The notes beneath the pieces were generated by a model. The model was not told the DNA's origin. It did not search any database and was given only the letters and a program-made list of their open reading frames with translations. Position numbers and translations under genes: made by a program. A DNA stretch of 64,000 bases from an uncultured Gemmatimonadales bacterium (GTDB lineage Bacteria; Gemmatimonadota; Gemmatimonadetes; Gemmatimonadales; GWC2-71-9): assembly GCA_963723565.1 (NCBI GenBank), contig CAVRRH010000007.1, positions 236,643 to 300,642 on the forward strand, in the 5' to 3' direction. Position 1 is the stretch's first letter; every line of letters begins with the position of its first letter. Shown here piece by piece: positions 7,347 through 56,913 of this stretch.

Positions 7347-7521
7347 GGGGACGGCGGTAAGCGCGGTACGGTTCGTAGCATTCTCGTCATCCCGAACGTA
7401 GTGAGGGATCTCAAACCTTTCGGGTCTGAGATCCTTCGCTTCGCTCAGGATGACAGCGCACACCCTGCCTCCCGTCTTTCCCGTCCTTCCCTCCTTCCGG
7501 TCCTTCCCGTCCTTCCCGTAC
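7345..7521. repeat. composite repeat: G-rich arm, GTCATCCCGAACG..CGCTCAGGATGAC core palindrome, C/T-rich tandem arm
   Basis: Core halves at 7386-7412 and 7428-7454 are inverted copies. The right arm, 7465-7521, is made of CCGTCCTTCC-like units. Translated, the core gives the SEAKDL and HPERSEGS peptides seen in spurious ORFs 6960..7523 and 7411..8481. Confidence 0.7.
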
Positions 7522-14304: not shown

Positions 14305-16020
14305 GCGGGGACCAGGGGCGTTGCCGCGACCCCCTCGATGGGCTCCGAAAGCGACCCACCGGGCGGAATCATGGGAAACACATTTGCCTCCTGTTCGATC
14401 ATGAATTCCACCAGGACCGGGCCAGGCTCGGCCGCGGCCTCGGCGACGGTGCGTTTCAGCTGATCGGTCGACTCGACCCGGTGTCCGGCGATCCCATAGG
14501 CCTCGGCGAGCTTGACGTAGTTCGGACTCCAGATCGGCGTGGCCGAATAGCGCTTACCGTGAAAGAACTGTTGCCACTGCCGCACCATCCCCAGGTACCC
14601 GTTGTTGAAGACCGCCATCTTCACCGGGATTCCCTCCTGCACCATGGTGGCGATCTCTTGCATGTTCATCTGGAATCCTCCGTCGCCCGAGATTGCCCAG
14701 ACCGGCTCACCCGGACGAGCCAGAGCGACGCCCATCGCCGCCGGTACCGCAAAGCCCATCGTTCCCAGTCCGCCGGAAGTGATGTGGCTGTTGGGCCGCT
14801 GATACCGAAACAGCTTGGCGACCCACATCTGATGCTGGCCGACATCGGACACGATGGTGGAGCGGCCGTCACTGGCGTCGCTGATGGCGTCCAGGATTGC
14901 CTGGGGCGAGAGGCCGGCGCGGAAGCTCTCCTCCCGAGGGCGCACAAAACTGGCAATCTCGCGCCGCCACGCGTCGCAGTTGCGGGGCGCTACCGCGGGA
15001 AGCAGGGAGCAGAGCACTTCCCGCGCGTCGCCTATGAGTCCCACGACCGCCGGCACGTTCTTCCCGATTTCCGAGGCATCGAGCTCGACGTGAATGAGCT
15101 TTGCCCCCCGGGCGAAGCCGGCGAGGTTTCCGGTTACCCGGTCGTCAAACCTGAGACCCAGGCCGATGATGAGGTCGGACTGCTGGATGGCCCGGTTGAC
15201 GTGAACCTCGCCATGCATGCCGGGCATTCCCAGGTGGAGCGGGTGCGACTCGGGAAAGGCACTGATGCCGAGCAGGGTGGTGATCACCGGAATGCCGGTG
15301 CGCTCCGCCAGCACCCGGAGCTCGTGATACGCGCCGGAGAGCACCACCCCGTGACCGGCCATGATGAGGGGCCGCTCGGCGGCGGCGATGAGCCGGGCAG
15401 CCTCGGCGAGAGCGGCGGTAAGGCGGTAGGGCGGTAGGGCGGTAGAGCGAGAACCTACCGCCTTTCCGACCTTCCGCCTTTCCGCCTTGCCACTCCGCCT
15501 TCTGATTCTGCACATCCTTGGGAATATCCAGCAGCACCGGTCCGGGTCTCCCTTCCTGGGCAACATGGAAGGCCTCGCGTACCGCGTCCTGAATCTCCTC
15601 GACGTCCTCGATCAGGCGACTGTGCTTGGTGATCGGCTGAGTGATCCCGATGATGTCGGTTTCCTGGAAGGCGTCCCGCCCCATCATCGCGCGGGCTACC
15701 TGGCCGGTGATCGCCACCACCGGCGTGCTGTCCATGTTGGCCGTGGCGAGCCCGGTGACGAGGTTGGTCGCTCCCGGACCCGAGGTGGCCACGCACACGC
15801 CGGCGCGGCCGGACGCGCGGGCGTACCCGTCCGCCGCGTGCGCCGCCGCTTGCTCGTGCCGTACGAGCACGTGCCGGAGCCCCGGGAACTCGGGCAGCGC
15901 GTGGTAGAATGGCATGATGGCGCCACCCGGGTAACCGAAGAGGACGTCGACACCCTCGTCGAGCAGGGCACGGCAGAGGATCTGTGAGCCGGTCAGGATT
16001 CCGTCATGGACGTGCCCCAT
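14301..16020 (-). CDS. ilvB: acetolactate synthase large subunit (one net frameshift inside an intragenic repeat)
   Basis: The N-terminal Pyr domain ([50 protein letters not shown]) is in ORF 15145..16068. The central and PP domains (..[29 protein letters not shown]..) are in ORF 14301..15566. The frames switch within 15414-15502. Confidence 0.9.
15414..15502. repeat. imperfect hairpin of GGCGGTAG-type octamer repeats inside the ilvB coding sequence
   Basis: GGCGGTAAGGCGGTAGGGCGGTAGGGCGGTAG (15414-15445), a 9-nt loop, then CTACCGCCTTTCCGACCTTCCGCCTTTCCGCC... (15455-15502). It is translated as ..[20 protein letters not shown].. in the linker after DIPKDVQ. Confidence 0.75.
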
Positions 16021-18224: not shown

Positions 18225-21200
18225 ATGGCCGCCAATGGGCAGCGGATCCACCCGGCCGGTTCCCGTCAGCACCACCGACGACACGCCGCCACTCGTGCAA
18301 CAACCTCCCTCGATTCCACCCGTGAGCATGATGCGTGCGGCGTAGGCTTCGTAGCCGCGGCATCCGGCGTTCGCAGCCATGAGGTAATCGCCATGGCCGT
18401 CGAGGCGGCGGCCCGTGTGGCGCACCGGGGCGCGGCCTCGACTGACCTGTCAGGCGATGGCGCGGGCCTTCTGACCCAGATCCCTCACCGATTGTTCTAC
18501 CGGGACTCCTACCGGCTGGGACTTCACCTGCAGCCCGGGCTCCCCTTTGGCGTGGGAGCCTTTTTCCTGCCGCCGTCCGGAGAGGCACTGGCTGCCTCGG
18601 TCAAGATGGTCGAGACGGTGCTGGCCGGGGACGGCATTCCGATCCTGGGCTGGCGCGACGTGCCGACGAATCCCGCTGCACTGGGCCCCACCGCGCAGGC
18701 GTCGTGTCCAGTCATCCGGCAGGTCCTGGTGGGCCGGCCGGCGCTCACGACCGACGAGGACGCCTGGGAGCGAGCCCTCTATCTGGCCCGGCGCGAGATG
18801 GAGCGGCGAGCGGAAGAGGCCAGGTTCCCCGGCTTCTACGCCTGCTCGATGTCCTGCCGCACCATCGTGTACAAGGCGTTGCTCACCGGAACCCAGCTCC
18901 CGGCGTTCTTCACCGATTTCCGGTATCCGGAATACGAGAGCGCGATCGCCGTCTTCCACCAGCGCTACTCGACCAACACCCTGCCCAGCTGGCCCCTGGC
19001 ACAGCCGTTCCGCCTCCTGGCCCATAACGGAGAGATCAACACGTTGTGGGGCAACCGGAACGCCATGACGATGCGGCAGCCGATGCTCGCCTCGCCGATA
19101 TGGGGAGAGAAGATCGAGCGGCTCAGGGAAGTCATCTGGCGGGAGGGCAGCGACTCGGCGAGCCTCGACAACGCGATGGAGCTGCTGGTTCGTTCCGGCC
19201 GTGATGTGATACACGCGTCGATGATGACGATCCCACAGGCGTGGGAGAAATACTCCGACCTCGATCCCGGGGTGAAAGCGTTCTACGAGTATCACCAGTG
19301 CATACTGGAACCGTGGGACGGTCCGGCCGCTCTCGCCTTCACCGACGGCGTGCTGGCGGGCGCCGCGGTGGATCGCAACGGGCTCAGGCCCTGCCGGTAC
19401 AAGGTGCGGGCGGACGGCCTGGTGGTGGCCGGCTCCGAGGTTGGCCTGGTGGACCTGGATCCGCGCGAGGTGGTGGAGTGCGGGAAGGTCGGCCCCGGTG
19501 AGGTCCTGGTGGTGGATACCCGTCGAGGAGAAGTGATTCGCAACCTCGACGCAAAGCGGGAGGTGGCGGCTCGCCGCCCGTACGCGCGCTGGGTCGCCCG
19601 CTACATGGCGACCCTGGTTCCCGACCCCGCGAGAGTTCCCCCCACCCACAGCGGCGAATCATTGCTGCGACTGCAGCGGGCGTTCGGCTACGGTGCCGAG
19701 GACTTGCGGATCGTGCTCGAGCCAATGGGCAGCACCGGCGGCGACCCGGTCTGGAGCATGGGTGACGATACTCCGATCCCGCCGCTCTCCGCCGTGCCCC
19801 AGAGTCTCTACGCCTATTTCCGGCAGCGGTTCGCTCAGGTCACGAATCCGCCGATCGATTCACTGCGCGAGTCCATGGTGATGTCGCTCAGGATGCACCT
19901 GGGCCGGCGCGGCTCGCCCTTGCTCGAGCGAGCCTCGTACGCCCGGATGCTGCGGCTGGAGCACCCGATCCTGCTGGCAGAGGAGATGGCGGCCCTTCGG
20001 AATGTCGCCGGGTTCTCGACCGTTACCCTGGATGCCGTATGGAATCCGGCGAAGGGAACCGGCGGACTCAAGTCCGCCCTCACCGCGCTCCGCCGTGCCG
20101 CGGAGCGCGCCGCGCGTCGGGGAGCACACATCCTCATCATCAGCGATCGCGCCGCCACTGACCGCCACGCACCCATCCCCATGCTCCTGGCCATCGGGGC
20201 GGTGCGCCAGCATCTGGTCCACGTCGGCCTGAGGGCCCGGGTGGGCATCGTGGCCGAGGCGGGCGACGCATTCGATATCCACCACTTCGCCACCCTCATC
20301 GGTTACGGTGCGGAGGCGGTGCATCCCTGGCTGGCCCTGGAGAGCGTTGACGAGATTTTCAGCGAGGTAGGGGCGACGCGATGCGTCGCCCGCGGAACCA
20401 GCGTCCCTCCCCGTTGAGGCAAGACATCAGTACCGCACGGCGGCCGAGAAGGGACTGCTCAAGATCCTCTCGAAGATGGGGATCTCCACCCTCTCCTCCT
20501 ACTGCGGTGCCCAGATCTTCGAGGCGCTCGGGCTCGGCAACGAGGTGATCACATCCTGCTTTGCCGGTACCGCCTCGCCACTCGGCGGGATCGGCTTCGA
20601 GGAGCTGGCCGAAGACGTCATGGCAGCGGCATGGGTCGGCGTACCAGGCCGTGGAGGCTGCTTCGCTACCGGATCACGGGCGAGTGCGCTTTCGCAAGGA
20701 GGGCGAGGATCACGGCTGGGCACCCCAGATCGTGATGGCACTGCAGCAGGCAACGGGAAGTGGGAGGAAGGCGGGCGGACGGGCGGAAGGGCGGAGGGCG
20801 GACAGACGGAAGGGACGGTGAGCGGCTATCAAAACTTTCTCGCGAAGAACGGAGCTCGACGTCCGGCGGGGCCGCGTGATCTGCTGGCCGTGAAGCGTGG
20901 TGACCCGATTCCGCTGGAGCAAGTCGAGCCAGCCGAAGACATCCGCCGCCGATTCGTGTCCTCCGCCATGTCCCTCGGCGCTCTCTCGCCGGAGGCGCAT
21001 GCCACGCTGTCCATCGCCATGAACCGGATGGGCGCGCGGTCGAACTCGGGAGAGGGCGGTGAGGATCCCGCGAACTACCACGGGCTCGGCAATGGCGACC
21101 GGGCCGACAATCGGGTGAAGCAGGTGGCATCCGCCCGATTCGGCGTGACCACCGAGTACCTCACTCGGGCGGAGGAGCTGGAGATCAAGATCGTCCAGGG

Positions 21201-22897
21201 CGCCAAGCCAGGTGAGGGCGGACAGCTTCCGGCCCACAAGGTCACCGACCTCATTGCCCGGCTGCGGCATGCCGTGCCCGGGATTCAGCTCATCTCGCCG
21301 CCGCCGCACCACGACATCTATTCGATCGAGGACCTGGCCCAGCTGATCCACGATCTCAAGACCGTCAATCCCCGCGCCCGAGTCGGGGTGAAGCTGGTTT
21401 CCGAAACCGGTGTGGGGACGGTGGCAGCCGGAGTGGCCAAGGCCTACGCCGACTACGTGCTGATCGCGGGGCACAACGGCGGCACCGGCGCATCGCCGCT
21501 CTCATCCATCAAGCACGCGGGCTCGCCCTGGGAGCTGGGACTGGCCGAGGCGCAGGCTACCCTGGTGCGAAACGGGTTGCGCCATCGAATCGAGGTCCGC
21601 ACCGATGGAGGACTGAAGACCGGACGGGACGTTGTCATCGCCGCTCTGCTTGGAGCGGAGAGCTACGGCTTCGGCACCGCGCCGCTGGTGGCCATGGGAT
21701 GCGACATGGCCCGGCAGTGCCACATCAACACCTGCCCGACCGGCATCGCCACCCAGCGCGAGGATCTCCGGGCCAAGTTTCGCGGGACGCCGGAGCAGGT
21801 GATCTCCTATTTCACCTTGATCGCCGAGGAGGTGCGGGGCATTCTGGCGGGTCTCGGTGTCCGCACCCTGGATGAGATTATTGGGCGCAACGATCTCCTC
21901 GAGCGAGTCGAGTGCCCCGACGTGCCGCGGGCGCAGATGCTGGATCTGTCGGTGCTGCTGGCGGGACAGCGGGACGGGCGGACAGAAGGGCAAAACGTAG
22001 CGCTGCGCCGCACAGTGGAGCGCAACGATCGGCCCGGCCTGGTGTCTCTCGACAACGAGATCCTGGCCGATCTGAAGCCGTATCTGGACTGCGCGCTTCC
22101 CTTCTCCGGCAACTACCAGATCCGCAACCACCATCTCACGGTGGGCGCGCGAGTGGCAGGCGCCATCGCGGAGCAACACGGGGATGAAGGCCTACCGCCT
22201 GGATCGGTTCGTCTTCGCTTTACCGGTACCGCGGGCCAGAGCTTCGGGGCGTTCCTCTGCCGCGGCGTGCATCTCGAGCTCGAAGGCGAGGCCAACGATT
22301 ACGTCGGCAAGGGACTGAGCGGAGGCGAGATCACCATCCGGCCGTTCCGCCGTGCCGGCTACGCCGACGTGTCGCACCAGCATCTGATAATCGGCAACAC
22401 CGTTCTCTACGGTGCCACTGCCGGGAAGCTGTTTGCCGCCGGCCAGGCGGGCGATCGCTTCGCGGTCAGAAACTCCGGCGCGGTAGCGGTGATCGAGGGA
22501 GCGGGCAACCACTGTTGCGAGTACATGACCGGCGGGATCGTCGTCGGTGCTCGGCCGTGCCGGCCGAAACTTTGCTGCCGGCATGTCGAATGGGGTGGCA
22601 TACGTCATGGACGAAGCCGGCACGTTCGCCAGCCGGCTGAACGGCGATCATGGTGGAGCTGGAGTGACCTGGATGACGAAGATGTCGAGCTGCTGCGGAA
22701 GCCTGATCCGGGAGCACGAGGAGAAGACGGTGAGCGCCAGGGCACGGAATATCCTGGTGCGGTGGGAGGAATACCTGCCACTGTTCCGAAAGGTCATGCC
22801 GAAGAGTGCGGCGCTCCAAGTCGCCGTCATTAGGGCGGCCTATCTGAGCTCGCCCCCCGCCGAGGCCGAGCTTTGGTTGGCACGCAGAACTGCCTGA
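18225..22897 (+). CDS. gltB: glutamate synthase large subunit (at least 7 frameshifts as sequenced)
   Basis: Conserved GltB blocks can be followed across frames:
- The amidotransferase Cys (HDACGVGFVA) and N-terminal domain, in ORF 18225..20417.
- [24 protein letters not shown] and the FMN domain (MSLGALSPEAH, SNSGEGGEDP, KIVQGAKPGEGGQLP, GHNGGTGASP), in ORF 20476..22833.
- The C-terminal GXGXG domain, ending in ORF 22547..22897.
Resolved shifts are at about 20390, about 20620, within 20755-20818, about 22540, and at 22649, 22665 and 22699. Confidence 0.92.
20755..20818. repeat. single-arm tandem 7-8-mer array (GGGCGGAN units) inside the gltB coding sequence
   Basis: GGGAAGTGGGAGGAAGGCGGGCGGACGGGCGGAAGGGCGGAGGGCGGACAGACGGAAGGGACGG. 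It sits between the conserved ALQQA.GSG and SGYQNFLAKNG..RDLL blocks. The reading frame changes across it. Confidence 0.7.
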
Positions 22898-24112: not shown

Positions 24113-24269
24113 AATCATCGCGAGCGGCCGGAGAGCCTGCCCTGAGCGGCATCGAAGGGCCGCAGGGCGATCCAGTAGTCATTGCGAGCGGTCCGGAGGA
24201 CCGCGCGGCAATCCGGGCCCCTCCGCACGTGGGCCACTGGATTGCTTCGGGCTTCGCCCTCGCAATGAC
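24113..24269. repeat. nested core palindromes (CATTGCGAG..CAATCC / GGATTGC..CTCGCAATGAC unit plus a GCCTGCCCTGAGCG unit)
   Basis: GTCATTGCGAGCGGTCCGGAGGACCGCGCGGCAATCC (24178-24214) is mirrored by GGATTGCTTCGGGCTTCGCCCTCGCAATGAC (24239-24269). It is preceded by ATCATCGCGAGCGG..CCTGCCCTGAGCGGCATCGAAGGGC, which is related to 27561-27593. Confidence 0.7.
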
Positions 24270-24349: not shown

Positions 24350-25029
24350 ATGAGTAAGCATTGGACTCACAAACCCGACCGCACCCGAGACGCCGAACGG
24401 AGCCGAGCCGCAATCTCTCGACGCTGCGGAACGGCTGTTCGCCGAACAAGGGTATGATGCCACCAGCCTGACCCAGGTCGGGGCCGCTGCCGGCGTCTCC
24501 CGCGGCACTCCCGGCTACTTCTTTCGGACCAAAGCCGAGCTGTATCGAGGCTGTGCTGGACCGCTCCCTCGCCGAGGTCCGCGAGGCGGTCCGGATCGGC
24601 CGCGAGCGGGCGCTCGCCAGCAGCGAGAGCCCGGAGACGATCCTCGCCGGCGCGGTCTCCGATTATTTCGACTTCCTCTCGGCCCGTCCCTACTTCATCC
24701 GTCTGATCGAGCGGGAAGCGCTGAGAATGCTCCGCCGCCGAGTCGGCGTGGACCACCTCTCTGCCGGACAGGAAGCGCTGGCCGCGATCAGCGCCGAGCT
24801 CGGCCTCGAGGACGCGCCGTCGGGCGAAGCCGCGCAGCTCCTCCTCAGCATCATCTCGCTCTGCTGGTTCCCTCTGATCCACGCCCGCACCGTCGCTCCG
24901 GCGGTCGGAGTGGGCCTGAGGACCCCGAAGAGCTGGAACGGCGCAAGCGTCACGTCATCTCGCTGGTACTGCACGGTCTCCGCGGCCCAGCCGTCGCCAC
25001 TACCTTCAACCGAGTCCCCCGAGCCATGA
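24350..25029 (+). CDS. TetR/AcrR family transcriptional regulator (at least 3 frameshifts as sequenced)
   Basis: The HTH region RSRAAILDAAERLFAEQGYDATSLTQVGAAAGVSRGTPGYFFRTKAELY is readable after removing single bases near 24416 and 24549. The C-terminal ligand domain is in ORF 24553..25029. ATGA overlap with the downstream dehydrogenase. Confidence 0.8.
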
Positions 25030-26888
25030 CTGATCTTCTCACGCCCCCAGTACAGGGTACGCAGACCCCGCTCGCCACCGAGCAGGAAGCCCGAGAGGTC
25101 GCCGAGGCCGCACGGGAGAAGGAATGGCAGGCGCCCAGCTTCGTGCGGGAGCTGTTCGAGGGCTCGTTCCGGCTCGATCTGGTGCATCCGTATCCCCCAG
25201 CCCGATCCGGCCGACCTGGCCCGCGCCAAGCCGTTCATGGAGAAGCTCGAGCGCTTCATGCGGGAGCGGGTGGACAGCGACAAGATCGACCGCGACGGAA
25301 AGATCCCGCCCGAGGTCGTGAAGGGACTGGGGGAGATCGGCGCCTTCGGCATCAAGATCCCGAGCGAGTACGGCGGTCTCGGTCTGAGCCAGTACAGCTA
25401 CACCCATGCGATCGGACTGGTGACCAGCCAGGACGGCAACCTCACCGCCCTGCTCTCCGCCGCGCAGTCGATCGGCGTTCCGACCCCGCTCAAGCTGTTC
25501 GGCACGCCGGCGCAGAAGAAGAAGTATCTGCCCCGCCTAGCCCAGGGTGCGGTGTCGGCCTTCGCGCTGACCGAGAACCACGTCGGCTCCGACCCGGCGG
25601 CGCTCGAGCACCACCGCCACGCTCTCCGAGGACGGCAAGCACTACATCCTCAACGGCGAGAAGCTCTGGTGCACCAACGGCACCATCGCCGAGCTGATGG
25701 TGGTGATGGCCCGGACCGGGCCCAAGAAGATCACGGCGTTCATCGTGGAGACCAACTGGCCCGGGGTCGAGGTGGTGCAGCGGCTCCACTTCATGGGACT
25801 CAAGGCGCTGGAGAACGGCATCATCCGGTTCACCAACGTGAAGGTGCCGGTGGAGAACGTGCTCTGGGGTGAGGGCAAGGGGCTCAAGCTGGCGCTGATC
25901 ACCCTCAACACGGGGCGCCTCACCCTGCCGGCATCGGCCGTGGCCGGGGCCAAGCGGTCGCTGGAGATCGTGCGGCGCTGGGCGGCCGAGCGGGTCCAGT
26001 GGGGCCAGCCGATCGGCAAGCACGATGCGATCGCCCAGAAGATCGGGCGCATGGCGGCGGACATCTTTGCCATGGAGGCGGTGAGCGACCTCGCCTCGCT
26101 GATGGCCGACCGGGGCAACGCCGACATCCGGCTCGAGGCCGCGATGGCCAAGATGTGGAACACCGAGATCGGCTGGCGGATCGTGGACGACACCCTGCAG
26201 ATCAAGGGCGGCCGCGGCTACGAGACCGCCGACAGCCTCAGGAGCCGAGGAGAACGGCCCGATCCGGTGGAGCGGATGATGCGCGACTATCGCATCAACC
26301 TGATCTTCGAGGGGTCCAGCGAGATCATGCGGCTCTTCATCGCCCGGGAGGCGGTGGACACCCATCTCAAGCTGGCCGGCGACTTGATCGATCCCAAGGC
26401 GCCGATGGGCAAGAAGATCCAGGCGCTGCTCCGCTCGGGCGCGTACTATGCCTTCTGGTATCCCAAGCTCTGGCTCGGCTGGGGCTGGTCTCCGCGGTAT
26501 GGCGAGTTCGGCGCGCTGGCGCAAGCACATGCGGTTCGTGAACCGCTCCTGCCGGCGGCTGGCCCGCACCCTGTTCCACTGCATGATCCGGTTCGGTCCC
26601 AAGCTGGAGAAGCGTCAGGCGGTGCTCGGCCGGCTGGTGGAGATCGGGGCGGAGCTACTGGCCATCACCGCGGCCTGCTCCCGGGCCTATGCCATGGCAA
26701 ACAGGACCCCACGAATCCGCGGGCCGGTGGAGCTGGCGGAGCTGTTCAGCCGGCAGGCCCGTCGCCGGGTGGAGGAGAAGTTTGCGGCGGTGTTCGACAA
26801 CGACGACGTCGCGACCTACCAGGTGGCCCAGCAGGTGCTCAAGGGCGAGCACAGCTGGATGGAAACAGGGATGGTGCGGGCGGAATAG
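25026..26888 (+). CDS. long-form acyl-CoA dehydrogenase (FadE-like, about 620 aa; 3 frameshifts as sequenced)
   Basis: ACAD blocks [50 protein letters not shown] and [15 protein letters not shown], plus a C-terminal helical extension. They are spread over ORFs 25026.., 25237.., 25697.. and 26448..26888. Resolved shifts are in the C run at 25194-25198, near 25610, and near 26520. Confidence 0.85.
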
Positions 26889-26911: not shown

Positions 26912-27064
26912 GGTAATCCCGAGCGGAGCGAGGGACCGGTCCGGCGTACGTTTGCAAGCGAATTCCCGTTTGCCGACGTTAACCCAGCCGATTTCTCGCT
27001 CCGCTCGAAATGACCGCGCGATTGGCTTCCCTACGCTATCCCTACCGCCGTACCGCCGTACCGC
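26912..27064. repeat. core palindrome (GGTAATCCCGAGCGGAGCGAGGGACC ... ATTTCTCGCTCCGCTCGAAATGACC) plus a CCGTACCG tandem arm
   Basis: Inverted halves lie at 26912-26937 and 26991-27015. The tandem array CCCTACGCTATCCCTACCGCCGTACCGCCGTACCGC lies at 27029-27064. Confidence 0.65.
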
Positions 27065-27924: not shown

Positions 27925-28638
27925 ATGAGCAATCCATTTTCCGGGATTCCGGATCCAGAGCTGCCCCGTCCGATCAGAAGGCCCTCCCAGCCGGGGCCGG
28001 TGCAGGAAGCACTGCGGGCAATGCGGGAAACCCTTCGGCCCGCGCTGCCGGCAGCACGGGAAGCGCTCCGGCGAGCGCGGCGGGTAGCCAAGGATGCGCT
28101 TTGGCAAGCGCGCCGGGTAGCGAAGGAAGGGCTTTGGCGAGCGCAGCGGTACGGCGAGGAGCTGTGGCGCCGGGGAAAGCGCAATCCTCGCACCGTCGGC
28201 GTCATCGGTGGGGCCGTCGCTATGACGCTGGTCGGCGCGATCGCCCTTAGCGCCTCCGGTGCTGGGCGATCGCTGTGTCCCCCTACGAGCGAGGGGAAGA
28301 CGCCGCGGTTTGCCCTGCTCATGGACCCGGTGCCCCAGGTTGGAGCAGGATCGGAAGTGGAGATCCACTACGATGTGTGTGGGCTGCCTTCGGGGACGGC
28401 CTACCGCGGTCGAGTTCAGCTCACCCAGCAGCGGCCGGCCGGGAAGAAAAAATCAGCCAAGCCCAAGCCCCTGGTGATCAGCTTCAAGGATCAGGTGGAT
28501 GGAGTGGCTACCCGCCGGCACCAGCAGTTGGATCTCGCGTCGACCAAGCCGGGCGCATACACCCTCGAGCTTACCGTCGCCGATAAGCAAGGGCGGGAGC
28601 GCAAGAGAGTGCAGAAGGTTGTGATTAAGGCTAAGTAA
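27925..28638 (+). CDS. hypothetical single-pass membrane protein
   Basis: Start taken at MSNPFSG (ATG 27925, in frame with ORF 27793..28638). Internal Arg-rich direct repeats (REALRRARRVAKDALWQARRVAKEGLWRAQR), one TM helix (VGVIGGAVAMTLVGAIALSA), and a beta-rich C-terminal domain. Confidence 0.45.
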   Translation: MSNPFSGIPDPELPRPIRRPSQPGPVQEALRAMRETLRPALPAAREALRRARRVAKDALWQARRVAKEGLWRAQRYGEELWRRGKRNPRTVGVIGGAVAMTLVGAIALSASGAGRSLCPPTSEGKTPRFALLMDPVPQVGAGSEVEIHYDVCGLPSGTAYRGRVQLTQQRPAGKKKSAKPKPLVISFKDQVDGVATRRHQQLDLASTKPGAYTLELTVADKQGRERKRVQKVVIKAK

Positions 28639-31170: not shown

Positions 31171-31327
31171 GGGGGGAAGGCGGTACGGCGGGAAGGCGGT
31201 ACGGCGGCCAAGCACTAACAGACCTCATCCCGAGTGCAACGAGATGAGGAATGCTTCTAAACCGCTCTTTTCCACCTATCCTGCCGCCGCTCCCTCTACC
31301 CCCCTACCGCCTTACCGCCCTGTCGCC
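31171..31327. repeat. palindrome with GGAAGGCGGTACGGCG-type arms and a central CCTCATCCCGAG..GATGAGG hairpin
   Basis: Left arm 31171-31207, central hairpin 31223-31249, right arm 31284-31327 (..CCCCTACCGCCTTACCGCCC..). The stop codon of the minus-strand DinB-family gene lies inside the right arm. Confidence 0.7.
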
Positions 31328-36313: not shown

Positions 36314-37639
36314 TTGCCCAAGGACAGCATTACCGTCACCGACAATCGGACCGGCAAGACCTACGAGCTGCCCATCACCGACGGCACCATCCGAGCCATC
36401 GATCTGCGCCAGATCAAGGTTGCCGATGACGATTTCGGCGTGATGACCTACGACCCGGCGTTCATGAATACCGCCGCGTGCCGGAGCGCCATCACCTTCA
36501 TCGACGGCGATCAGGGTATCCTGCGCTATCGCGGCTATCCGATCGAGCAGCTGGCCGAGAAGGCCTCATTTCTCGAGGTGGCCTACCTCCTCTGTGAGGG
36601 CGAGCTGCCGAAACGGCTGCAGCTGACCAAGTGGGAAGAAGAGATCAAGTTCCACACCTACGTTCATACCAATATTACCAAGTTTCTGGAGGGGTTCCGG
36701 TACGACGCCCACCCGATGGGAATGCTGCTGGGGGCCGTGGGGGCGCTTTCCACCTTCTACCCTGATGCGAAGAACATCCACGACCCGGCCAACCGCTATC
36801 TCCAACGGGTTCGCTTGCTGGCCAAGCTGCCGACCATCGCGGCGTTCGCGTTCCGCCACTCCCGTGGACTGCCGTACGAGTTCCCCCGGAACGATCTGGA
36901 CTACATCGGCAACTTCGTCAACATGACGTTCAGCATCGGCGGGCTTCATCAGCCCAACAAGGTGCTGCAGCGCGCACTCGAGATCCTCCTCATCCTGCAC
37001 GCCGACCATGAGCAAAACTGCTCCACCAATGCCGTGCGGGCGGTCGGCTCCTCCCACGTGGACCCCTTCTCCGCAATCAGCGCCGGCATTGCCGCCCTAT
37101 ACGGCCCGTTGCACGGAGGAGCCAACGAGGCCGTGCTTCAGATGCTGGACGAGATCGGCGACAAGAAGAACATCTCGTCGTTCATCGAGAAGGTTAAGGG
37201 CGGATCAGACCGGCTGATGGGCTTCGGCCATCGGGTCTACAAGTCGTACGACCCCCGCGCCAAGCTGATCAAGAAGGTGGCCTATGACGTCTTCGAGCAG
37301 ACCGGGCTCAACCCCAAGCTGGAGATGGCGCTCGAGCTGGAGCGGATCGCGCTCGAGGACGAGTACTTCATCAAGCGGAAGCTCTACCCCAACGTCGACT
37401 TCTATTCGGGCCTGATCTATCAGGCAATGGGATACCCGACGGACTATTTCACGGTCCTGTTTGCCATCGGGCGTACGCCGGGGTGGCTGGCCCAGTGGGA
37501 GGAGATGCTGCTCGACAAGGATCAGAAGATCGCCCGGCCGCGGCAGGTGTATATCGGGTCGGAACAGCGCGACTTCGTCCCCCTGGAGAAACGGGGCGAT
37601 CGCAGGAAAGTCGAGCGGGAGAGAGTTAGTAAGAGGTGA
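36314..37639 (+). CDS. gltA: citrate synthase (type II)
   Basis: TTG 36314 lies 8 nt after GAGGA; the longest ORF starts at 36185. Conserved GILRYRGYPIEQL, LILHADHEQNCST and GFGHRVYK motifs. The stop codon lies inside the repeat arm. Confidence 0.9.
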   Translation: MPKDSITVTDNRTGKTYELPITDGTIRAIDLRQIKVADDDFGVMTYDPAFMNTAACRSAITFIDGDQGILRYRGYPIEQLAEKASFLEVAYLLCEGELPKRLQLTKWEEEIKFHTYVHTNITKFLEGFRYDAHPMGMLLGAVGALSTFYPDAKNIHDPANRYLQRVRLLAKLPTIAAFAFRHSRGLPYEFPRNDLDYIGNFVNMTFSIGGLHQPNKVLQRALEILLILHADHEQNCSTNAVRAVGSSHVDPFSAISAGIAALYGPLHGGANEAVLQMLDEIGDKKNISSFIEKVKGGSDRLMGFGHRVYKSYDPRAKLIKKVAYDVFEQTGLNPKLEMALELERIALEDEYFIKRKLYPNVDFYSGLIYQAMGYPTDYFTVLFAIGRTPGWLAQWEEMLLDKDQKIARPRQVYIGSEQRDFVPLEKRGDRRKVERERVSKR

Positions 37640-37808
37640 GAGATGAGAAGTGAGAAGTGAGAAGTGAGAAGTTTAATGTGAAGCCTTGATTGTCACCCCG
37701 AGCGGACGCGAGGGGGCCTGAGCTGTGTAGAGCTTCGGCCCCTTCGCTGCGCTCAGGGTGACACGCCCTCTCACTTCTCACTTCTCACTTCTCACTTCTC
37801 ACTTCTTA
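37621..37808. repeat. exemplar composite palindrome: (GTGAGAA)n arm, GTCACCCCGAGCG..CGCTCAGGGTGAC core, (TTCTCAC)n arm
   Basis: The left arm, 37621-37671, has 7 heptads; the inner 3-4 are exact AGTGAGA. Core halves are at 37692-37718 and 37737-37762. The right arm, 37768-37808, has TCACTTC x5. It occupies the whole gap between the convergent gltA and speA genes, and both stop codons fall in the arms. Confidence 0.85.
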
Positions 37809-39674
37809 CGTTGTCGTCTCCGCCGGAACATCCCCCTCTAGGTACGTATACCCCTCCAGGCCTGCCACGAAATCGGCGATGAAGCTGTTCGCGTCCTGAC
37901 GGGTAAGCTCCTTCGCGTTGCTGACCTTTCGGCGGAACGCCGTCAGGAGGTCGGCGGCGTGGAACTGGACGTAATTGAGCACCTCCGTCACGGTATCGCC
38001 GTGGACGAGATCGGTGATCTCGTAGCCCTGTTCGGTCAGCCGCACGTGCACGGCGTTGGTGTCGCCGAACAGGTTGTGCAGGTCGCCCAGGATCTCCTGG
38101 TAGGCACCGGTGAGGAAGATGCCGAGGATGTACGGCTCGTCTTCCACCAGGGGATGAAGCTCGAGTGACGGCTTGCCCTTCCGGCCCCCGGTGAAACGGT
38201 CGATCACCCCATCCGAATCGCAGGTGACGTCCTGAAGCGTGCCCCGCCGGGTAGGTGCCTCGTTGAGGCGATGGATCGGCATGATGGGGAAGAGCTGATC
38301 GATGGCCCAATGGTCCGGGAGCGACTGAAAGACCGAAAAGTTGCAGAAGTAGCGGTCCACCAGCTGCGCCTCGATATGATTTACGATCTCGGGGAAACCC
38401 GCTTTGTCTTCCTTGATAGCCTGGGAGAGCGCACCCAGCGTCACCAGGTAGAGCTGATCGGCGTCGGCCTTGTCCCGGAGGGAGAAGACGCCGCTGGCGA
38501 AATACTCTTGGGCCCGTTCCTTGGCAAAGATCGCGTCGTGGAAGACCTCTTCGATCCGGTCCTGGGTGAGCCCCTCCAGGTTCTCCGACATCTCGACCAG
38601 CAGCGGGTGAGGCTCTTCCCGTAGTTTCGGGGGCACCGGCTCGACCTGGGACTCCACGTCGATCACGTTGATGAGCAGCAGCGCGTGATGCGCCGTGATC
38701 GCCCGCCCCGATTCCGAGATGATATGCGGCATCGGCAGTTCCTCGGTCCGGCACACGGAGCCCAGGGTGTAGACGATGTCGCTGGCGTATTCGCGCATCG
38801 AGTAGTTGACGCTGGCAGGGCGGGTCGAGCGGGACCCTTCGTAGTCCACCCCCAGCCCTCCTCCCACGTCCACATGGGTGATGTCGAAGCCCATGTTCCG
38901 GAGCTCGACATAGTAGCGTCCGATCTCCTCCAGCGCAGCCTTCACGTGACGGATATCGGTGATCTGGCTGCCCAGATGGAAGTGGACCAGCTTGAGGATG
39001 TCCTTCCGATCGAGGCGATCCAGCCGATCCAGCAGTTTCATCAGCTCGACGGCGCCGAGACCGAACTTCGATCGTTCACCTCCGCTCTTGGCCCAGCGTC
39101 CCGAGCCCTCGGTGGCGAGCTTAATCCGCACCCCGGCGGTCGGACGGACACCCATTTCATCCGCCACCTTGAGCAACACCTCCAGCTCGGTGAGCTGCTC
39201 GAGGACGATCATCACCTGGTGCCCAAGCTTCTGGCCCATCAGAGCCAGACGCATGAACTCTTCGTCCTTGTAGCCGTTACAGACGATCAGATGATTGCTG
39301 GCCTCGCTCAGGCCGAGCACCGCCTGGAGCTCGGGTTTGCTCCCGACCTCGAGCCCCACGCCGTGGGGCGCTCCGAACTCGACAATCTCCTGGATCACGT
39401 GCCGCTGCTGGTTCACCTTGACCGGATACACGGTGGTGTAGCTGCCCTGGTAACCGAACTCCTTGATGGCGTTGCCGAACTCGGTTGCGAGCGCCTGAAT
39501 CCTGGACTGCAGGATGTCCGAGAAACGAAGCAGAAGCGGCAGCCCGACCCCCTGGGCGTTCAGGTCCATGGCCAGACGGTAGAGATCGAGCCCGCGCTTG
39601 CGGTTGGCATCGGGGTGCACAGTTACGTGCCCCTCGGCGTTGACGCGAAAATAACCCAGGCCCCAGCCGCTCAT
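37806..39674 (-). CDS. speA: biosynthetic arginine decarboxylase
   Basis: 622-aa ORF with WGLGYFRVNAEGHVTV, YPVKVNQQRHV and a PLP-fold barrel. The frame stays open about 70 nt upstream of ATG 39674 (..WTTKDAEKLYN), preceded by AAGGAG, so the true start may be a non-ATG codon further 5'. Confidence 0.9.
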   Translation of the reverse strand: MSGWGLGYFRVNAEGHVTVHPDANRKRGLDLYRLAMDLNAQGVGLPLLLRFSDILQSRIQALATEFGNAIKEFGYQGSYTTVYPVKVNQQRHVIQEIVEFGAPHGVGLEVGSKPELQAVLGLSEASNHLIVCNGYKDEEFMRLALMGQKLGHQVMIVLEQLTELEVLLKVADEMGVRPTAGVRIKLATEGSGRWAKSGGERSKFGLGAVELMKLLDRLDRLDRKDILKLVHFHLGSQITDIRHVKAALEEIGRYYVELRNMGFDITHVDVGGGLGVDYEGSRSTRPASVNYSMREYASDIVYTLGSVCRTEELPMPHIISESGRAITAHHALLLINVIDVESQVEPVPPKLREEPHPLLVEMSENLEGLTQDRIEEVFHDAIFAKERAQEYFASGVFSLRDKADADQLYLVTLGALSQAIKEDKAGFPEIVNHIEAQLVDRYFCNFSVFQSLPDHWAIDQLFPIMPIHRLNEAPTRRGTLQDVTCDSDGVIDRFTGGRKGKPSLELHPLVEDEPYILGIFLTGAYQEILGDLHNLFGDTNAVHVRLTEQGYEITDLVHGDTVTEVLNYVQFHAADLLTAFRRKVSNAKELTRQDANSFIADFVAGLEGYTYLEGDVPAETTT

Positions 39675-45317: not shown

Positions 45318-45373
45318 GGGTCTCCTGGACCGGCTTGGGGTTGCGAACATGCATTGCAGCCCGCTACTGAGTA

Positions 45374-45474
45374 ACACGAAAACACGAAAGGGCGAAAGCA
45401 CGAAAACAGCAAAACGCTAAAGGAGGGAACCACAAAAACGAATAGCTTTCGAAATGCTGTTGCTTTTTTCTGTG
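45374..45474. repeat. A-rich octamer array (ACACGAAA units) with a partial inverted partner
   Basis: ACACGAAAACACGAAAGGGCGAAAGCACGAAAACAGCAAAACGC (45374-45417) and GCTGTTGCTTTTTTCTGTG (45456-45474). The unit resembles the CACGGAAAAG units of the 56684 element. Confidence 0.55.
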
Positions 45475-45492: not shown

Positions 45493-46443
45493 ATGGCAGC
45501 TTTCTCCCCGAGTAACCCTGGATTGCATGTGGCGGTGAGCGGCGCCAGCGGCTTGATCGGCGGCGCCCTGGTCCGGCATTTGACCACGAAGGGACACCGG
45601 GCGCGCCCGCTCGTGCGGCGGGCGCCAGGGCCGGGCGAGATCGGCTGGGATCCAGCCGCCGGCCGCCTCGACCCGAGCGATCTGGAGGGCCTAGACGCCG
45701 TCGTGCACCTCGCCGGCGAGAACGTGGGCGTGCGCTGGACTAGAGCCCGCAAGGCGCGCATCCGCGACAGCCGGATTCAAGGGACCCGCGTCCTGAGCGA
45801 GGCTCTCGCCCGCACCCGCCGGCGCCCCGCAGTGCTGGTCTCTGCTTCCGCCATTGGCATCTACGGCGATCGAGGCGACGAGATCCTCACCGAGAGCAGT
45901 GCACTCGGGCCGCGGGAGGATTTCCTGGCCGCCGTCGGACAGGAATGGGAGAACGCCGCGGCCCCGGCTCGGACTGCCGGAATTCGAGTCGTGCACCCGA
46001 GGTTCGGCGTGGTGCTCAGTCCAGCCGGGGGCGCCTTGGGGAAGATGCTGCTGCCGTTCCGGTTAGGGCTCGGCGGGCTGCTGGGGGACGGATCGCAGTG
46101 GATGAGCTGGATCTCGATCGACGATGTGGTGGGCGCTCTCCTGCACCTGGTGCTGAACGAGACACTGTCCGGTCCGGTGAACGTTACCGCCCCCGAGCCG
46201 CTTCGGAATCGAGATTTCACCCGAACCCTCGGCCGGGTGCTCTCCCGTCCGACCTTGCTTCCAGTTCCCTCCGCAGCTCTCCGCCTGGTCTTGGGAGAGA
46301 TGGCCGACTCCACACTGCTCGCCAGCACACGGGTGCTGCCTGGCCGTCTGCTGGAGTCCGGGTATCGCTTCACTCATCCCGACCTCGAGACCGCCTTGCG
46401 CCATGTGCTCCGGCAGGATCGTGGAGCTATTTTTCCCCTATGA
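45493..46443 (+). CDS. TIGR01777/YfcH-like epimerase-family protein (SDR fold plus DUF1731)
   Basis: Intact 316-aa ORF with [12 protein letters not shown] Rossmann motif and the C-terminal ..[23 protein letters not shown] block. Confidence 0.8.
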
Positions 46444-47147
46444 GCGGACCAAAGGCTGTGGTTCTTCTGAGCGGCGGGATAGACTCGACAACGGTCGCGG
46501 CGATTGCACTCAGCCGGGACTTCGACGTACACGCGCTCACCTTCCGCTACGGGCAGCGACACAAGGCCGAGGTCGAGGCGGCCCGGCGGGTGGCCGAGCG
46601 GCTCGGAATTCGCCGGCACGTGGTCCTGGATATCGACCTGCGGGCCTTCGGTGGCTCTGCCCTCACCGGCGACGTAGATGTGCCCAAGGACACGCCCATC
46701 GATGAGATCGGGGACCGAATTCCGTCAACGTATGTCCCGGCACGCAATACGATCTTTCTGGCATTCGCAGTAGCCTGGTCCGAGGTGCTCGGTGCATCCG
46801 ACATCTTCCTCGGTGCCAATGCCCTGGATTACAGCGGGTACCCCGATTGCCGTCCGGAGTACATCCAGTCATTTCAGACGATGGCCAACCTGGCCACCCG
46901 CGCGGGGGTGGAGGGCGGCCAGAGACTCACGATTCATACCCCACTCATCGCTCTCTCCAAGCGCGAGATCATCGAGCAGGGCTTGCGGCTCGGCGTGGAC
47001 TTTGGAATCACCCGGACGTGCTACGACCCGTCCCCGGAAGGAGCGGCGTGCGGGAGGTGCGAGGCCTGCCTGCTTCGCCTAAAGGGGTTCAGGGAAGCAG
47101 GGATGGAAGATCCAGCGCCGTATCAAACGGTGAGCGGTAAGCGGTGA
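46440..47147 (+). CDS. queC: 7-cyano-7-deazaguanine synthase
   Basis: ATGA overlap with the upstream gene. [14 protein letters not shown]-loop and a C-terminal Cys cluster [17 protein letters not shown]. The last 6 codons and the stop are repeat-arm sequence. Confidence 0.92.
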
Positions 47148-47266
47148 GCGGTAAGCGGGAGAACAAGGTGCATATGCTCCTCTTCATCCACTTTGCGGTC
47201 GTGGGCTCGGGCTGCGGAAGCAGAATGGTGAGCCCCCGCTCACCGCTCACCGCTTACCGCTCACGC
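47127..47266. repeat. palindrome with (GGTGAGC/GGTAAGC)x4 arms between queC and queE
   Basis: Left arm ACGGTGAGCGGTAAGCGGTGAGCGGTAAGCGGG (47127-47159); right arm CCCGCTCACCGCTCACCGCTTACCGCTCACGC (47235-47266). There is one mismatch over the inner 3 units and a 75-nt spacer. Confidence 0.85.
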
Positions 47267-47271
47267 TTTAT

Positions 47272-47907
47272 ATGACTTACGCGGTCAAGGAAATCTTCTA
47301 CACCCTCCAGGGGGAAGGCGCCAACACCGGGCGCGCCGCGGTCTTCTGCCGCTTCGCTGGCTGTAACCTGTGGACCGGCCGCGAGCGTGACCGAGCCGAG
47401 GCCATCTGCCAGTTCTGCGACACCGATTTCGTGGGAACCGACGGTCCTGGTGGCGGTAGCTTCCCCACCCCGGAGGCGCTGGCGGCGGCGGTTTCGGCCG
47501 CGTGGCCCGAAAGCGAGTCCGGGAAGCGATTCGTTGTCTGCACCGGGGGAGAACCGCTGCTCCAGCTCGATGCCCCGCTACTGGCAGCGCTACACGACGC
47601 CGGGTTCGAAGTCGCCATCGAGACCAACGGTACTCTCCCGCTGGTCGAGGGCATCGACTGGGTGTGCGTGAGCCCCAAAGCCGACTCGAAGCTGGTGGTC
47701 GGGACCGGTGACGAGATCAAGCTGGTGTTTCCTCAGGCAGAGGCCGAGCCTGAGCGGTTCGAGCGACTTGACTTCCAGCATTTCTTCCTTCAGCCGATGG
47801 ATGGGCCGAACCGACAGGCTAACACTGAGGCCGCCCTGCGCTATTGCCTCGCGCATCCACGCTGGCGGCTGAGCCTGCAGACGCATAAGCTTCTCGGAAT
47901 TCCGTGA
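47272..47907 (+). CDS. queE: 7-carboxy-7-deazaguanine synthase (radical SAM)
   Basis: Intact 211-aa ORF with TLQGEG and the CRFAGCNLWTG..C..C radical-SAM cluster region. Confidence 0.92.
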   Translation: MTYAVKEIFYTLQGEGANTGRAAVFCRFAGCNLWTGRERDRAEAICQFCDTDFVGTDGPGGGSFPTPEALAAAVSAAWPESESGKRFVVCTGGEPLLQLDAPLLAALHDAGFEVAIETNGTLPLVEGIDWVCVSPKADSKLVVGTGDEIKLVFPQAEAEPERFERLDFQHFFLQPMDGPNRQANTEAALRYCLAHPRWRLSLQTHKLLGIP

Positions 47908-48049
47908 GCGGGAAAGCGGGGAAGCAGGGAAGCGGGGAAGGATGCGTTGGTGCGTCACGCGCCGCCGCCGTACCAGCTCTCTTATCATCCCCTACCTTTT
48001 AAGGGCAGACTTCCCTGCCCTGCTTCCCCGCTTCCCCGCTTCCCCGCTG
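47906..48049. repeat. palindrome with (GGGGAAGC)x4 arms between queE and the HD-domain gene
   Basis: Left arm GAGCGGGAAAGCGGGGAAGCAGGGAAGCGGGGAAGG (47906-47941); right arm CTTCCCTGCCCTGCTTCCCCGCTTCCCCGCTTCCCCGCTG (48010-48049). It begins within the queE stop codon and ends 5 nt before the next ATG. Confidence 0.85.
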
Positions 48050-56662: not shown

Positions 56663-56683
56663 ACAAGATACTCAAAGCCCTGA

Positions 56684-56913
56684 CCACGGATGAACACGGA
56701 AAAGCACGGATCACTCCGCTGTGTCGAGACCTTCCTTATCCTCACCAATCCAAGGCAATCTGTTTGACACCACACCCACGGGGTTCATGTGAGGACAAGG
56801 AGAATGTCGAATTCGCCAGGTGTGCCGTTGCACAAGTATGAACTGCACCCGGTGACGCGAACGGAGCGCCTCGATTCCCGGAACAATCCGTGCTTTTCCG
56901 TGTTCATCCGTGG
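56684..56913. repeat. 230-bp MITE-like element with perfect 28-bp terminal inverted repeats
   Basis: CCACGGATGAACACGGAAAAGCACGGAT (56684-56711) is the exact reverse complement of ATCCGTGCTTTTCCGTGTTCATCCGTGG (56886-56913). Each TIR is itself three CACGGA units at 10-nt spacing. No obvious target-site duplication. Confidence 0.7.

Follow-up and report, generated by a model that had tools for sequence, protein, structure and literature searches.

The gap between the convergent genes gltA (citrate synthase) and speA (biosynthetic arginine decarboxylase), in a 64,000-nucleotide stretch of the genome of an uncultured Gemmatimonadales bacterium (contig CAVRRH010000007.1 of assembly GCA_963723565.1; hereafter the window), is filled by a nested palindrome in which mirrored arrays of a 7-nt unit bracket a conserved core. 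Our analysis suggests, with confidence that we would call evenly balanced, that the gap holds two separable layers, a resident mirrored-repeat hairpin and a core related to units carrying a GIY-YIG gene, and that the composite likely serves as a transcript-end hairpin shared by the two genes. Each layer also occurs alone. In our comparison set, 45 of the 50 mirrored array pairs have no core half-site in their loop (five have one), and ten of the 19 core dimers or units have no arrays nearby; the other nine have arrays within 70 nt, against a DNA background of 3.9%, and several of these nine represent one orthologous gap, leaving fewer independent sites. An earlier reading of the window, made from sequence alone (the sequence-only reading), had proposed a single element class, which does not hold, as the structure is a composite of two independent things. 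Its further suggestion of a non-autonomous mobile element survives for the core, which looks like one and is related to the GIY-YIG gene units; the arms are resident, slippage-prone local DNA.

The comparison set comprised the window, Gemmatimonadales metagenome-assembled genomes (MAGs) and soil metagenomes, 161 sources and 1.44 Mb in all (loci numbered with an L), with metagenomic relatives collected by a protein-guided scan. Searching with the speA product yielded relatives 94–95% identical in Gemmatimonadales MAGs and soil metagenomes; an exact lookup of the same product returned no record, and a metagenome scan with a gltA 3′-end pattern gave no match. Genes were placed with a simple codon-usage caller trained on the long open reading frames (ORFs) of the window, which is adequate for gene ends and not authoritative for starts; the gltA start at 36314 comes from a codon-score gene caller built for this analysis. 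An assembly artefact was considered and rejected, since the architecture recurs with variation, between intact flanking genes, in independent MAGs built from short or long reads and also in JGI metagenomes. Short-read contigs often stop 0–300 nt past speA, in or at the repeat hairpin (L021, L024, L029, L034, L035, L081 and others), and mirrored-repeat hairpins probably break Gemmatimonadales assemblies at gene ends.

Anatomy of the gltA–speA gap

The segment 37621–37810 reads as a nested palindrome: mirrored heptad arms contain the two stop codons and enclose an inner inverted pair. The architecture of tandem repeat, core palindrome and mirrored tandem repeat that the sequence-only reading described is therefore real. 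On the left, the heptads GTAAGAG (37629–37635), GTGAGAG (37636–37642), ATGAGAA (37643–37649) and three copies of GTGAGAA (37650–37670) are preceded by a degenerate GAGAGTTA, and the array decays outward into the coding end of gltA (37621–37635). The seven GTGAGAA-type heptads reported for this arm hold as an array with outward decay, but only three are exact. The five exact TCACTTC heptads reported on the right are present as described, and Tandem Repeats Finder (TRF) places this array at 37769–37806 (period 7, 5.4 copies, 100% matches). An inverted-repeat search gave 93% complementarity over 41 nt for the arms (37629–37669 against 37769–37809), in which six GTGAGAA-type heptads per arm pair in register with three mismatches. 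The inner pair, GTCACCCCGAGCGGACGCGAGGGGGCC (37692–37718) opposite GGCCCCTTCGCTGCGCTCAGGGTGAC (37737–37762), is 76% complementary as DNA over 25 nt (37691–37715 against 37739–37763) and pairs almost continuously as RNA when G-U pairs are counted. These values agree with the outer stem of more than 35 bp and the inner stem of about 24 bp that had been predicted. The inner palindrome as a whole (37691–37763) runs TGTCACCCCGAGCGGACGCGAGGGGGCC, 18 nt, GGCCCCTTCGCTGCGCTCAGGGTGACA, and is followed by 5 nt before the right array.

Both stop codons lie within the arms, as had been noted, and terminating ribosomes must consequently open the stem. The final gltA codons AGT AAG AGG TGA double as heptads 1 and 2 of the left arm; the TAA of speA is the complement of 37806–37808. 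The region had been given as a 188-bp gap; its extent is as described, but the true stop-to-stop gap is 166 nt (37640–37805), and 188 nt counts the coding ends. The NF004126 match to gltA stops at residue 470 of a 484-residue ORF (ORF start 36185), leaving about 14 residues beyond the profile, and the NF003763 match to speA ends at residue 613 of 622. At the 3′ ends of speA and gltA in several other loci (L001, L003, L005, L082 and others), arrays add variable C-terminal tails rich in purine codons, and the stop position moves with the array; in L001, speA extends 51 nt beyond the conserved end. A search of the window for three consecutive GTGAGAA units, allowing up to three mismatches, returned seven matches against an expectation of zero, all within the two arms, as expected from the claim that the unit is specific to this locus.

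Folding of a 211-nt stretch gave one long hairpin on either RNA strand, at −138.4 kcal/mol (z −15.1) on the plus strand and −132.5 kcal/mol (z −14.2) on the minus strand; the DNA fold of the element reached −64.4 kcal/mol (z −12.2). Shuffled sequences never matched the RNA or the DNA energies, and when the gaps of the window were folded, this element was the strongest intergenic structure. A stable G+C-rich stem-loop thus lies directly 3′ of a stop codon, as in a terminator. Scans for sigma-70 promoters and T-tract terminators found no match at the element, and Rfam at gathering thresholds gave none across the whole window and five GIY-YIG loci; in E-value mode, the element drew only far-sub-threshold resemblances to miRNA precursors, that is, to generic long hairpins.

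The core and the GIY-YIG gene units

Two inverted copies of a half-site of about 26 nt make up the core; the half-site has the form (C/T)GTCA-N4-GAGCGNAGCGA-N4′. When 32 of the 39 distinct strict half-sites are aligned, the tag GTCA and the loop GAGCGNAGCGA are invariant or nearly so, and the 4–5-bp stem formed by N4 and N4′ covaries (UA to CG, for example): 27 cells changed on both sides and 86.9% of cells were paired, compared with 31–60% in slid controls, and none of 500 shuffles reached this level. The left half-site in the window makes a small hairpin of REP-like form and is a variant, its loop having 12 nt. The stems of the two window halves, CCCC/GGGG and CCCT/AGGG, are each internally perfect, and the long hairpin has a C-A mismatch at this place; this suggests that what is maintained is the small half-site hairpin.

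The sequence-only reading had placed the core in a repeated family, and we found 66 strict half-sites in the 1.44 Mb and the 19 strict dimers or units. At least seven whole or partial copies lie in the window, among them copies at 7386–7454, 24178–24269 and 26913–27014, a short hairpin variant at about 31224 and half copies at about 54539 and 62893; many more occur in the other loci. The first of these copies stands just past the stop of a small gene (6984–7346) and is followed by a 9-nt pyrimidine-rich array (7463–7519) that has only a weak purine-rich partner on its left. An array of TACCGCCG (27043–27064) follows the copy at 26913–27014. Beside the window copies, a search for a REP-associated tyrosine transposase (RAYT) or another transposase in the ORFs 24553–25029 and 24690–25355 gave a sub-threshold TetR-C match or nothing.

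At the orthologous gap, cores and arms vary separately. The core is missing in L001, L004 and L146, which have arms and speA products 94–95% identical to that of the window; in L007 and L013 (speA 89–90% identical) a core is present without arms. Such presence and absence at one site is the insertion polymorphism expected of a miniature inverted-repeat transposable element (MITE). Among further relatives whose speA is 94–95% identical, three loci (L003, L082 and L083) have GTGAGAA-type arms around another core subfamily, the L082 core fitting the reverse complement of the L003 core better than its forward sequence (74 vs 66 of 90 positions), and L084, L085 and L086 combine other arms with yet other cores.

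The half-sites also flank a gene. In L003, a 111-residue ORF at 10353–10688 that matches Pfam GIY-YIG (PF01541, E = 2e-11) lies between two forward half-sites (10198 and 10221) and two inverted ones (10669 and 10689); L092 carries the one further homologue present in the 1.44 Mb, which half-sites flank in the same manner. A database search returned 411 homologues, mostly on short contigs, and the few with an organism label are Gemmatimonadales. In the five contexts that we fetched (L161 and L163–L166), forward half-sites lie 50–180 nt upstream and inverted half-sites overlap the 3′ end of the ORF. Half-sites therefore flank the GIY-YIG gene, of about 105–120 codons, in all seven cases examined. 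Structure-specific enzymes, Slx1 and UvrC among them, belong to the GIY-YIG superfamily. The core shares its ends with the gene-carrying units, as expected of a MITE (GTCACCCCGAGCGGATGCAAGGGGTC in L161 against GTCACCCCGAGCGGACGCGAGGGGGCC in the window), and the full unit of L161 sits between GGTAAGG-type and CCTTACC-type arrays, bracketed like the gltA–speA core.

Mirrored arms as a class and their turnover

The arms belong to a class of hairpins found across Gemmatimonadales, each built from a unit specific to its locus. The comparison set contains 494 tandem-repeat arrays and 50 mirrored pairs, 37 with a period of 7, 12 with a period of 8 and one with a period of 10; pairs of arrays with the same unit in direct orientation within 500 nt numbered zero. 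The median arm measures 31 nt (maximum 86) and the median loop 57 nt (range 4–174). Seven clear pairs lie in the window, each with its own unit and with the purine-rich array 5′ (Table 1), and weaker mirrored hairpins occur at 5414–5479 and 15414–15488. The pair at 6856–6956 lies between an ammonium-transporter gene and the gene 6984–7346, which we take from its N-terminus to be PII-like. Pairs usually occupy the gap almost completely, leaving a few bases to the genes, and lie at −35 to +30 nt relative to gene ends. Arrays of period 7 or 8 abut a stop codon in 140 placements, 111 of them purine-rich on the coding strand, and a start codon in 32, of which 22 are pyrimidine-rich; one array may fall in several of these classes. 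By gap context, 22 pairs are convergent, 17 co-directional and six divergent (45 of the 50 could be classified). A mirrored heptad hairpin of the GGGTCYA type occupies the divergent gap upstream of gltA in L002 (6156–6287), L085 (4826–4949), L146 (2932–3049) and L157 (3025–3147), a gap that in the window is only about 20 nt long.

The purine-rich array is the 5′ one in 49 of the 50 pairs, and in every convergent (22/22), tandem (17/17) and divergent (6/6) case. Because this property is identical on both strands, it does not stem from the direction of replication or transcription as such. For tandem and divergent gaps, we rejected the idea that intergenic regions or hairpins are purine-first in general, because array-free gaps are unbiased there (36/84 and 6/21 in tandem structured gaps, 35/73 in divergent gaps). 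Array-free convergent gaps are purine-first in 45 of 58 cases, a bias confounded by purine-rich coding ends; the convergent speA–gltA gaps (64 of 65 purine-first) carry the same confounder and were not used as evidence. A need for hydrophilic C-terminal tails encoded by the repeats was likewise rejected as a general cause, since divergent gaps also follow the rule without exception. Three causes may be considered. A pyrimidine-rich 3′ arm makes a weak RNA:DNA hybrid, as known from hybrid thermodynamics, and could thereby favour hairpin invasion. Alternatively, a C-rich arm placed first might offer a free Rho-loading site, making the pyrimidine-first order polar in operons and leaders, or the process that generates the arrays could itself be polar.

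Orthologous gaps reveal how quickly the arms change. Grouping by flanking genes identified nine other genomes with mirrored arms at the speA–gltA gap, and their units differ (GAAGTGA, GTGAGAG, CGAGAAG, GTGAGCG, CGGAAGGT, ACGAGAG and AACGGTC); at six further orthologous sites, too, the unit is swapped and the mirror relation kept. Over the 230-nt gap, L082 and L083 differ by single heptads in the two arms (one fewer on the left, one more on the right) and by one single-nucleotide polymorphism, the sequences being otherwise identical. The arms therefore slip independently, like variable-number tandem repeats (VNTRs), and they share with VNTRs head-to-tail copies, as detected by TRF, whose number differs between these close strains. 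In L085 and L086, the two gap arrays are no longer complementary, the left one still being purine-rich and the right one pyrimidine-rich. The outermost left heptads coincide with the conserved last codons of gltA, which encode VSKR before the stop in the window, L002, L003 and L082; this suggests that the unit may have been seeded from local sequence.

Across 65 distinct speA–gltA gaps (speA 70–95% identical), nearly all fold strongly, with sequences that are unrelated. Deeper branches carry plain GC-rich stems of 10–27 bp, and others have repeat-flanked or repeat-only stems. The sequence-only reading would have been undone by relatives with an unstructured spacer together with a unique accident in this genome, a combination that did not appear: the spacer is sometimes lacking, but the element belongs to a family.

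Table 1. Positions of the gltA–speA composite, the mirrored pairs of the window and the GIY-YIG units of other loci. Positions refer to the window unless a locus is named; paired numbers are the starts of the left and right arrays.
Feature	Position	Strand	Basis
gltA (citrate synthase)	36314–37639	+	NCBIfam NF004126, 596 bits
left purine-rich arm, heptad array	37628–37672		TRF period 7, 6.4 copies, 86% matches
gltA stop TGA, within stem, heptad 2	37637–37639	+	sequence
spacer TTAATGTGAAGCCTTGAT, unpaired or weakly paired, 18 nt, left arm to core	37673–37690		sequence and fold
core left half-site GTCA-CCCC-GAGCGGACGCGA-GGGG-GCC	37692–37718	+	family alignment, N4/N4′ covariation
core spacer TGAGCTGTGTAGAGCTTC, 18 nt, 5-bp mini-hairpin at apex	37719–37736		sequence and fold
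core right half-site GTCA-CCCT-GAGCGCAGCGA-AGGG-GCC, inverted relative to left	37737–37762	-	among the 39 distinct strict half-sites
right pyrimidine-rich arm, TC + five TCACTTC (37771–37805) + TTAC	37769–37809		inverted repeat, mirrors left arm
speA stop TAA, outermost right heptad	37806–37808	-	sequence
speA (biosynthetic arginine decarboxylase)	37806–39674	-	NCBIfam NF003763, 829 bits
mirrored pair GGGCTAT	6856/6937 (span 6856–6956)		
mirrored pair GGCGGTAC	31179/31296 (span 31179–31321)		
mirrored pair GTGAGAA	37628/37769		
mirrored pair CGGTGAG	47128/47236 (span 47128–47264)		
mirrored pair AGCGGGGA	47907/48018 (span 47907–48048)		
mirrored pair, 10-mer unit	56681/56886 (span 56681–56912)		
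mirrored pair GGAAGCGG	58655/58742 (span 58655–58813)		
GIY-YIG unit	L003 10198–10689		
GIY-YIG unit	L092 6382–6851		
GIY-YIG unit	L161 338–853		
GIY-YIG unit	L163 1324–1840		
GIY-YIG unit	L164 1452–1817		
GIY-YIG unit	L165 1439–1825		
GIY-YIG unit	L166 1396–1960		

Other repeats in the window stand apart from these pairs. An A-rich 8-nt array of the AACACGAA type, followed by a partly complementary T-rich stretch (45373–45440), lies upstream of a gene at 45493 and may represent either an ordinary terminator or the hairpin theme in AT-rich form. A 33-nt tandem repeat (28059–28149; 2.8 copies, 81% matches) is contained in an ORF without a Pfam match (28000–28638). The large subunit of glutamate synthase is split into two ORFs (18225–20417 and 20476–22833), with its central domain interrupted between them, and a G-rich octamer array of CGGGCGGA (5.5 copies, 20772–20814) sits in frame within the linker that precedes the FMN domain; a frameshift, a pseudogene or an assembly error could account for the split, together with an insertion encoded by the repeat.

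Origin and role of the composite

We propose that a resident intergenic hairpin had its stem extended in both arms when a 7-nt unit expanded by strand slippage; this unit would have been seeded locally, the last gltA codons and stop codon forming the outermost heptads. The arms would gain and lose copies independently and stay mirrored either through selection for pairing or because one arm is templated on the other. The core would be a gene-less miniature of the GIY-YIG unit, an inverted half-site dimer at the apex, probably inserted into the hairpin loop and mobilised in trans; given the differing cores at the orthologous gap, the simplest reading is that cores arrived there repeatedly and independently, each time at the apex of a hairpin already resident. 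On RNA, the whole structure would form a factor-independent hairpin common to both strands that ends or protects, or both, the 3′ ends of gltA and speA. A bidirectional transcript-end hairpin for these two genes is the most likely role to judge from the sequences, and the evidence for it is mixed. The role of terminator or mRNA stabiliser is plausible for this convergent gap, because it holds a strong hairpin throughout the order although the sequences are unrelated; this persistence speaks most strongly for a structure in use, the simplest use being a transcript-end hairpin that the two genes share.

Several observations weigh against this proposal. With regard to function at transcript ends, no U-tract follows the stem, the tails being only pyrimidine-rich, and a scan of 37300–38100 found no terminator-like site; stems of 40–86 nt far exceed what termination needs. 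Mismatches in tandem-context stems show no sense-strand preference for G-U (17 G-U vs 22 A-C), so that pairing looks strand-neutral, DNA-level or too recent for selection. Six of the 45 classifiable pairs lie in divergent gaps, and L049, L052 and L066 have only 33 nt between the conserved codons, with essentially no spacer. Mirrored hairpins also stand inside what look like operons: the one at 47128–47264 separates the QueC gene (46440–47147) from a radical-SAM gene whose ATG lies 7 nt past the right arm, and a second separates the radical-SAM gene from an HD-domain gene. The N-terminus of the radical-SAM gene product, MTYAVKEIFYTLQGEG, looks QueE-like. The hairpins in these operon-like settings end 6–7 nt ahead of the next start codon, and in the loops of the queC–queE region we found no promoter-like site and one chance-level terminator-like match. 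A partial role as terminator or stabiliser, by analogy with the REPs of Escherichia coli, would fit operons. With regard to insertion of the core, no target-site duplication is visible at the copies in the window, L003 and L082; their flanks (GAT|TGTCA...TGACA|CGC; GGC|...|GCC) extend the palindrome and contain no direct duplication. The window contains no GIY-YIG gene, and we know of no GIY-YIG enzyme that is a transposase.

The strongest competing explanation, which we regard as possible if rather unlikely, is that the structure has no function: mirrored hairpins would be a mutational by-product, a kind of genomic weed, and the core a selfish insert, with the whole tolerated. Slippage together with palindrome repair templated within a strand or on the sister would inflate tolerated gaps until the arrays reach coding sequence. 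Much of the above agrees with this, including arrays that extend through gaps as far as stop and start codons, the presence of pairs in convergent, tandem and divergent gaps alike, the complete replacement of units between relatives and shifts in copy number between near-identical strains, the lack of RNA-strand bias in stem mismatches, the relatives without a spacer, and the persistence of arrays in L085 and L086 although they are non-complementary. However, pure neutrality does not easily explain why nearly all 65 lineages retain a strong hairpin although the sequence has turned over completely. Mirror symmetry (50 inverted pairs, no direct ones) and purine-first order require a directed process or selection, not plain slippage, and the purine-first rule is missing from array-free gaps in tandem and divergent contexts.

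A directed process of this kind might be an undescribed, active and polar one centred on DNA hairpins, which we consider a speculative possibility, less probable again than a by-product. Small GIY-YIG nucleases would cleave intergenic hairpins or cruciforms, and slipped repair templated within the strand would follow. If such a process exists, it would explain why duplication is mirror-only, why the 5′ array is purine-rich on both strands and why half-site dimers stand at the apex. The GIY-YIG gene with its half-sites would then be a new type of bacterial mobile element, an analogue of RAYT and REP, and the arms would be its footprint or preferred landing pad.

A function at the level of DNA, as a cruciform, as a protein-binding or topological site (in the way that bacterial interspersed mosaic elements, BIMEs, bind gyrase and integration host factor) or as the substrate of a structure-specific nuclease, appears improbable to us. 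It would account for complementarity that is equal on both strands, for the strand-neutral mismatch spectrum, for the strength of the DNA fold and for half-sites whose invariant tag and loop and covarying stem are those expected of a protein-recognised hairpin, in a family whose associated gene encodes a GIY-YIG nuclease. Yet no sequence-specific protein could read arms whose units are specific to each locus, the approximately 100 nt of loop and core between the arms disfavour cruciform extrusion, and no known nucleoid-protein binding motif was identified.

That the whole 188-nt composite is one non-autonomous mobile element, foldback- or MITE-like with internally repetitive terminal inverted repeats, is very improbable: it resembles Foldback and Galileo elements in its long, internally repetitive inverted ends (PMC3573991, PMC4079207), and arrays also enclose several further cores in related genomes, but the heptad unit is confined to this locus within the window and each locus has its own, the outermost heptads are conserved C-terminal codons of gltA, the same orthologous gap shows arms without cores and cores without arms, and cores of differing subfamily or orientation lie between GTGAGAA-type arms in the window, L003 and L082.

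Comparison with known systems

Our results describe a bacterial order, common in soil, that fills many of its gaps with locus-specific repeat hairpins under a mirror rule and a purine-first rule. The speA–gltA hairpin, kept through the sequence turnover of about 65 lineages, amounts to a natural experiment on how convergent transcripts end in high-GC bacteria without U-tract terminators. The sequence-only reading had known of no described class to which the structure could belong, and searches of the open-access literature and Rfam likewise found no description of mirrored hairpins of locus-specific repeats, of such a half-site or of its link to a GIY-YIG gene.

Mycobacterial interspersed repetitive units (MIRUs), a form of VNTR, are tandem repeats placed between operon genes over stop and start codons, with a copy number that varies among strains; their units of 40–100 bp are shared genome-wide, direct and often translationally coupled. 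The gap arms resemble them as intercistronic tandem repeats, but MIRUs are direct and shared, whereas the arms are mirrored and locus-specific. Closer in unit length are the heptamers of cyanobacterial short tandemly repeated repetitive (STRR) sequences, reportedly described by Mazel and colleagues in 1990. Long prokaryotic simple-sequence repeats (SSRs) with units of 5–11 nt, especially heptamers, were reported by Mrazek et al. 2007, as related in PMC4679880; G-rich heptamers are found in Xanthomonas and Nostoc (PMC4692102), and the TAACTGA repeats of Beggiatoaceae comprise 169 direct sets and one inverted set (PMC4679880). Like the arrays described here, these SSRs form intergenic, head-to-tail and slippage-prone arrays of 7- or 8-nt units in a few to about ten copies, often overlapping the end of the upstream ORF or abutting the next start codon. 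They differ in using one or a few units genome-wide, almost always in direct orientation, whereas our arrays have locus-specific units, inverted partners and purine-first order; the single unit shared among many loci in direct orientation that defines STRR or TAACTGA repeats is thus not seen in the arms.

Long stems without U-rich tails have been described as terminators in high-GC Actinobacteria (PMC13613805), and the gap element resembles such U-tract-poor or bidirectional terminators in being a stable hairpin at or overlapping two convergent stops, which folds on both strands and is conserved in position across the order. It differs in the length of its stem (about 41 + 25 bp), far longer and made of tandem repeats with no U-tract, and mirrored hairpins of the same class also occur within operon-like gene pairs and in divergent gaps. 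The eukaryotic Foldback transposons (FB, Galileo and Tetris; PMC3573991, PMC4079207) likewise have long inverted arms of short tandem repeats around a centre. In those elements the sub-repeats are common to the copies and move along with them, whereas here the shared part is the centre alone and the arms stay local: the unit is unique to its locus in the window, and the outer heptads are gltA codons.

The closest parallels to the core are the repetitive extragenic palindromes (REPs) of E. coli and Pseudomonas, with their REPIN doublets, BIMEs and RAYT transposase (Bertels & Rainey 2011, PMC3116915; Di Nocera et al. 2013, PMC3733652). The core resembles these imperfect palindromes of 20–40 nt in being short, in ending with a conserved tag and in occurring between genes in many copies, and it forms head-to-head inverted dimers that can fold separately or together as one long stem-loop. 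REP dimers inside other palindromes are on record (PMC3733652), and REPs act as mRNA stabilisers or terminators and may stall ribosomes near stop codons (RepRanger, PMC12306157). Half-sites that flank a small nuclease gene are also an analogue of the 'REPtron'. Differences remain in structure, in the tag and in the gene. The core stem has only 4–5 bp around a conserved 11-nt loop, and REPs are not bracketed by mirrored tandem repeats. In place of the REP tag GTAG or CGTC (PMC3733652), the core has GTCA preceded by C or T, with TGTCA in the window and CGTC-A in some copies. RAYTs are tyrosine transposases of the IS200/IS605 type, whereas the gene flanked here encodes a GIY-YIG nuclease, and no RAYT was found among the ORFs tested. 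Because both tag and associated gene differ, we do not file the core as a member of the REP family. It is apparently a REP-like family tied to a GIY-YIG gene instead of a RAYT, and would then be a second, independent case of a small nuclease gene with miniature palindromic offspring, hinting that an enzyme of this kind can drive intragenomic spread.

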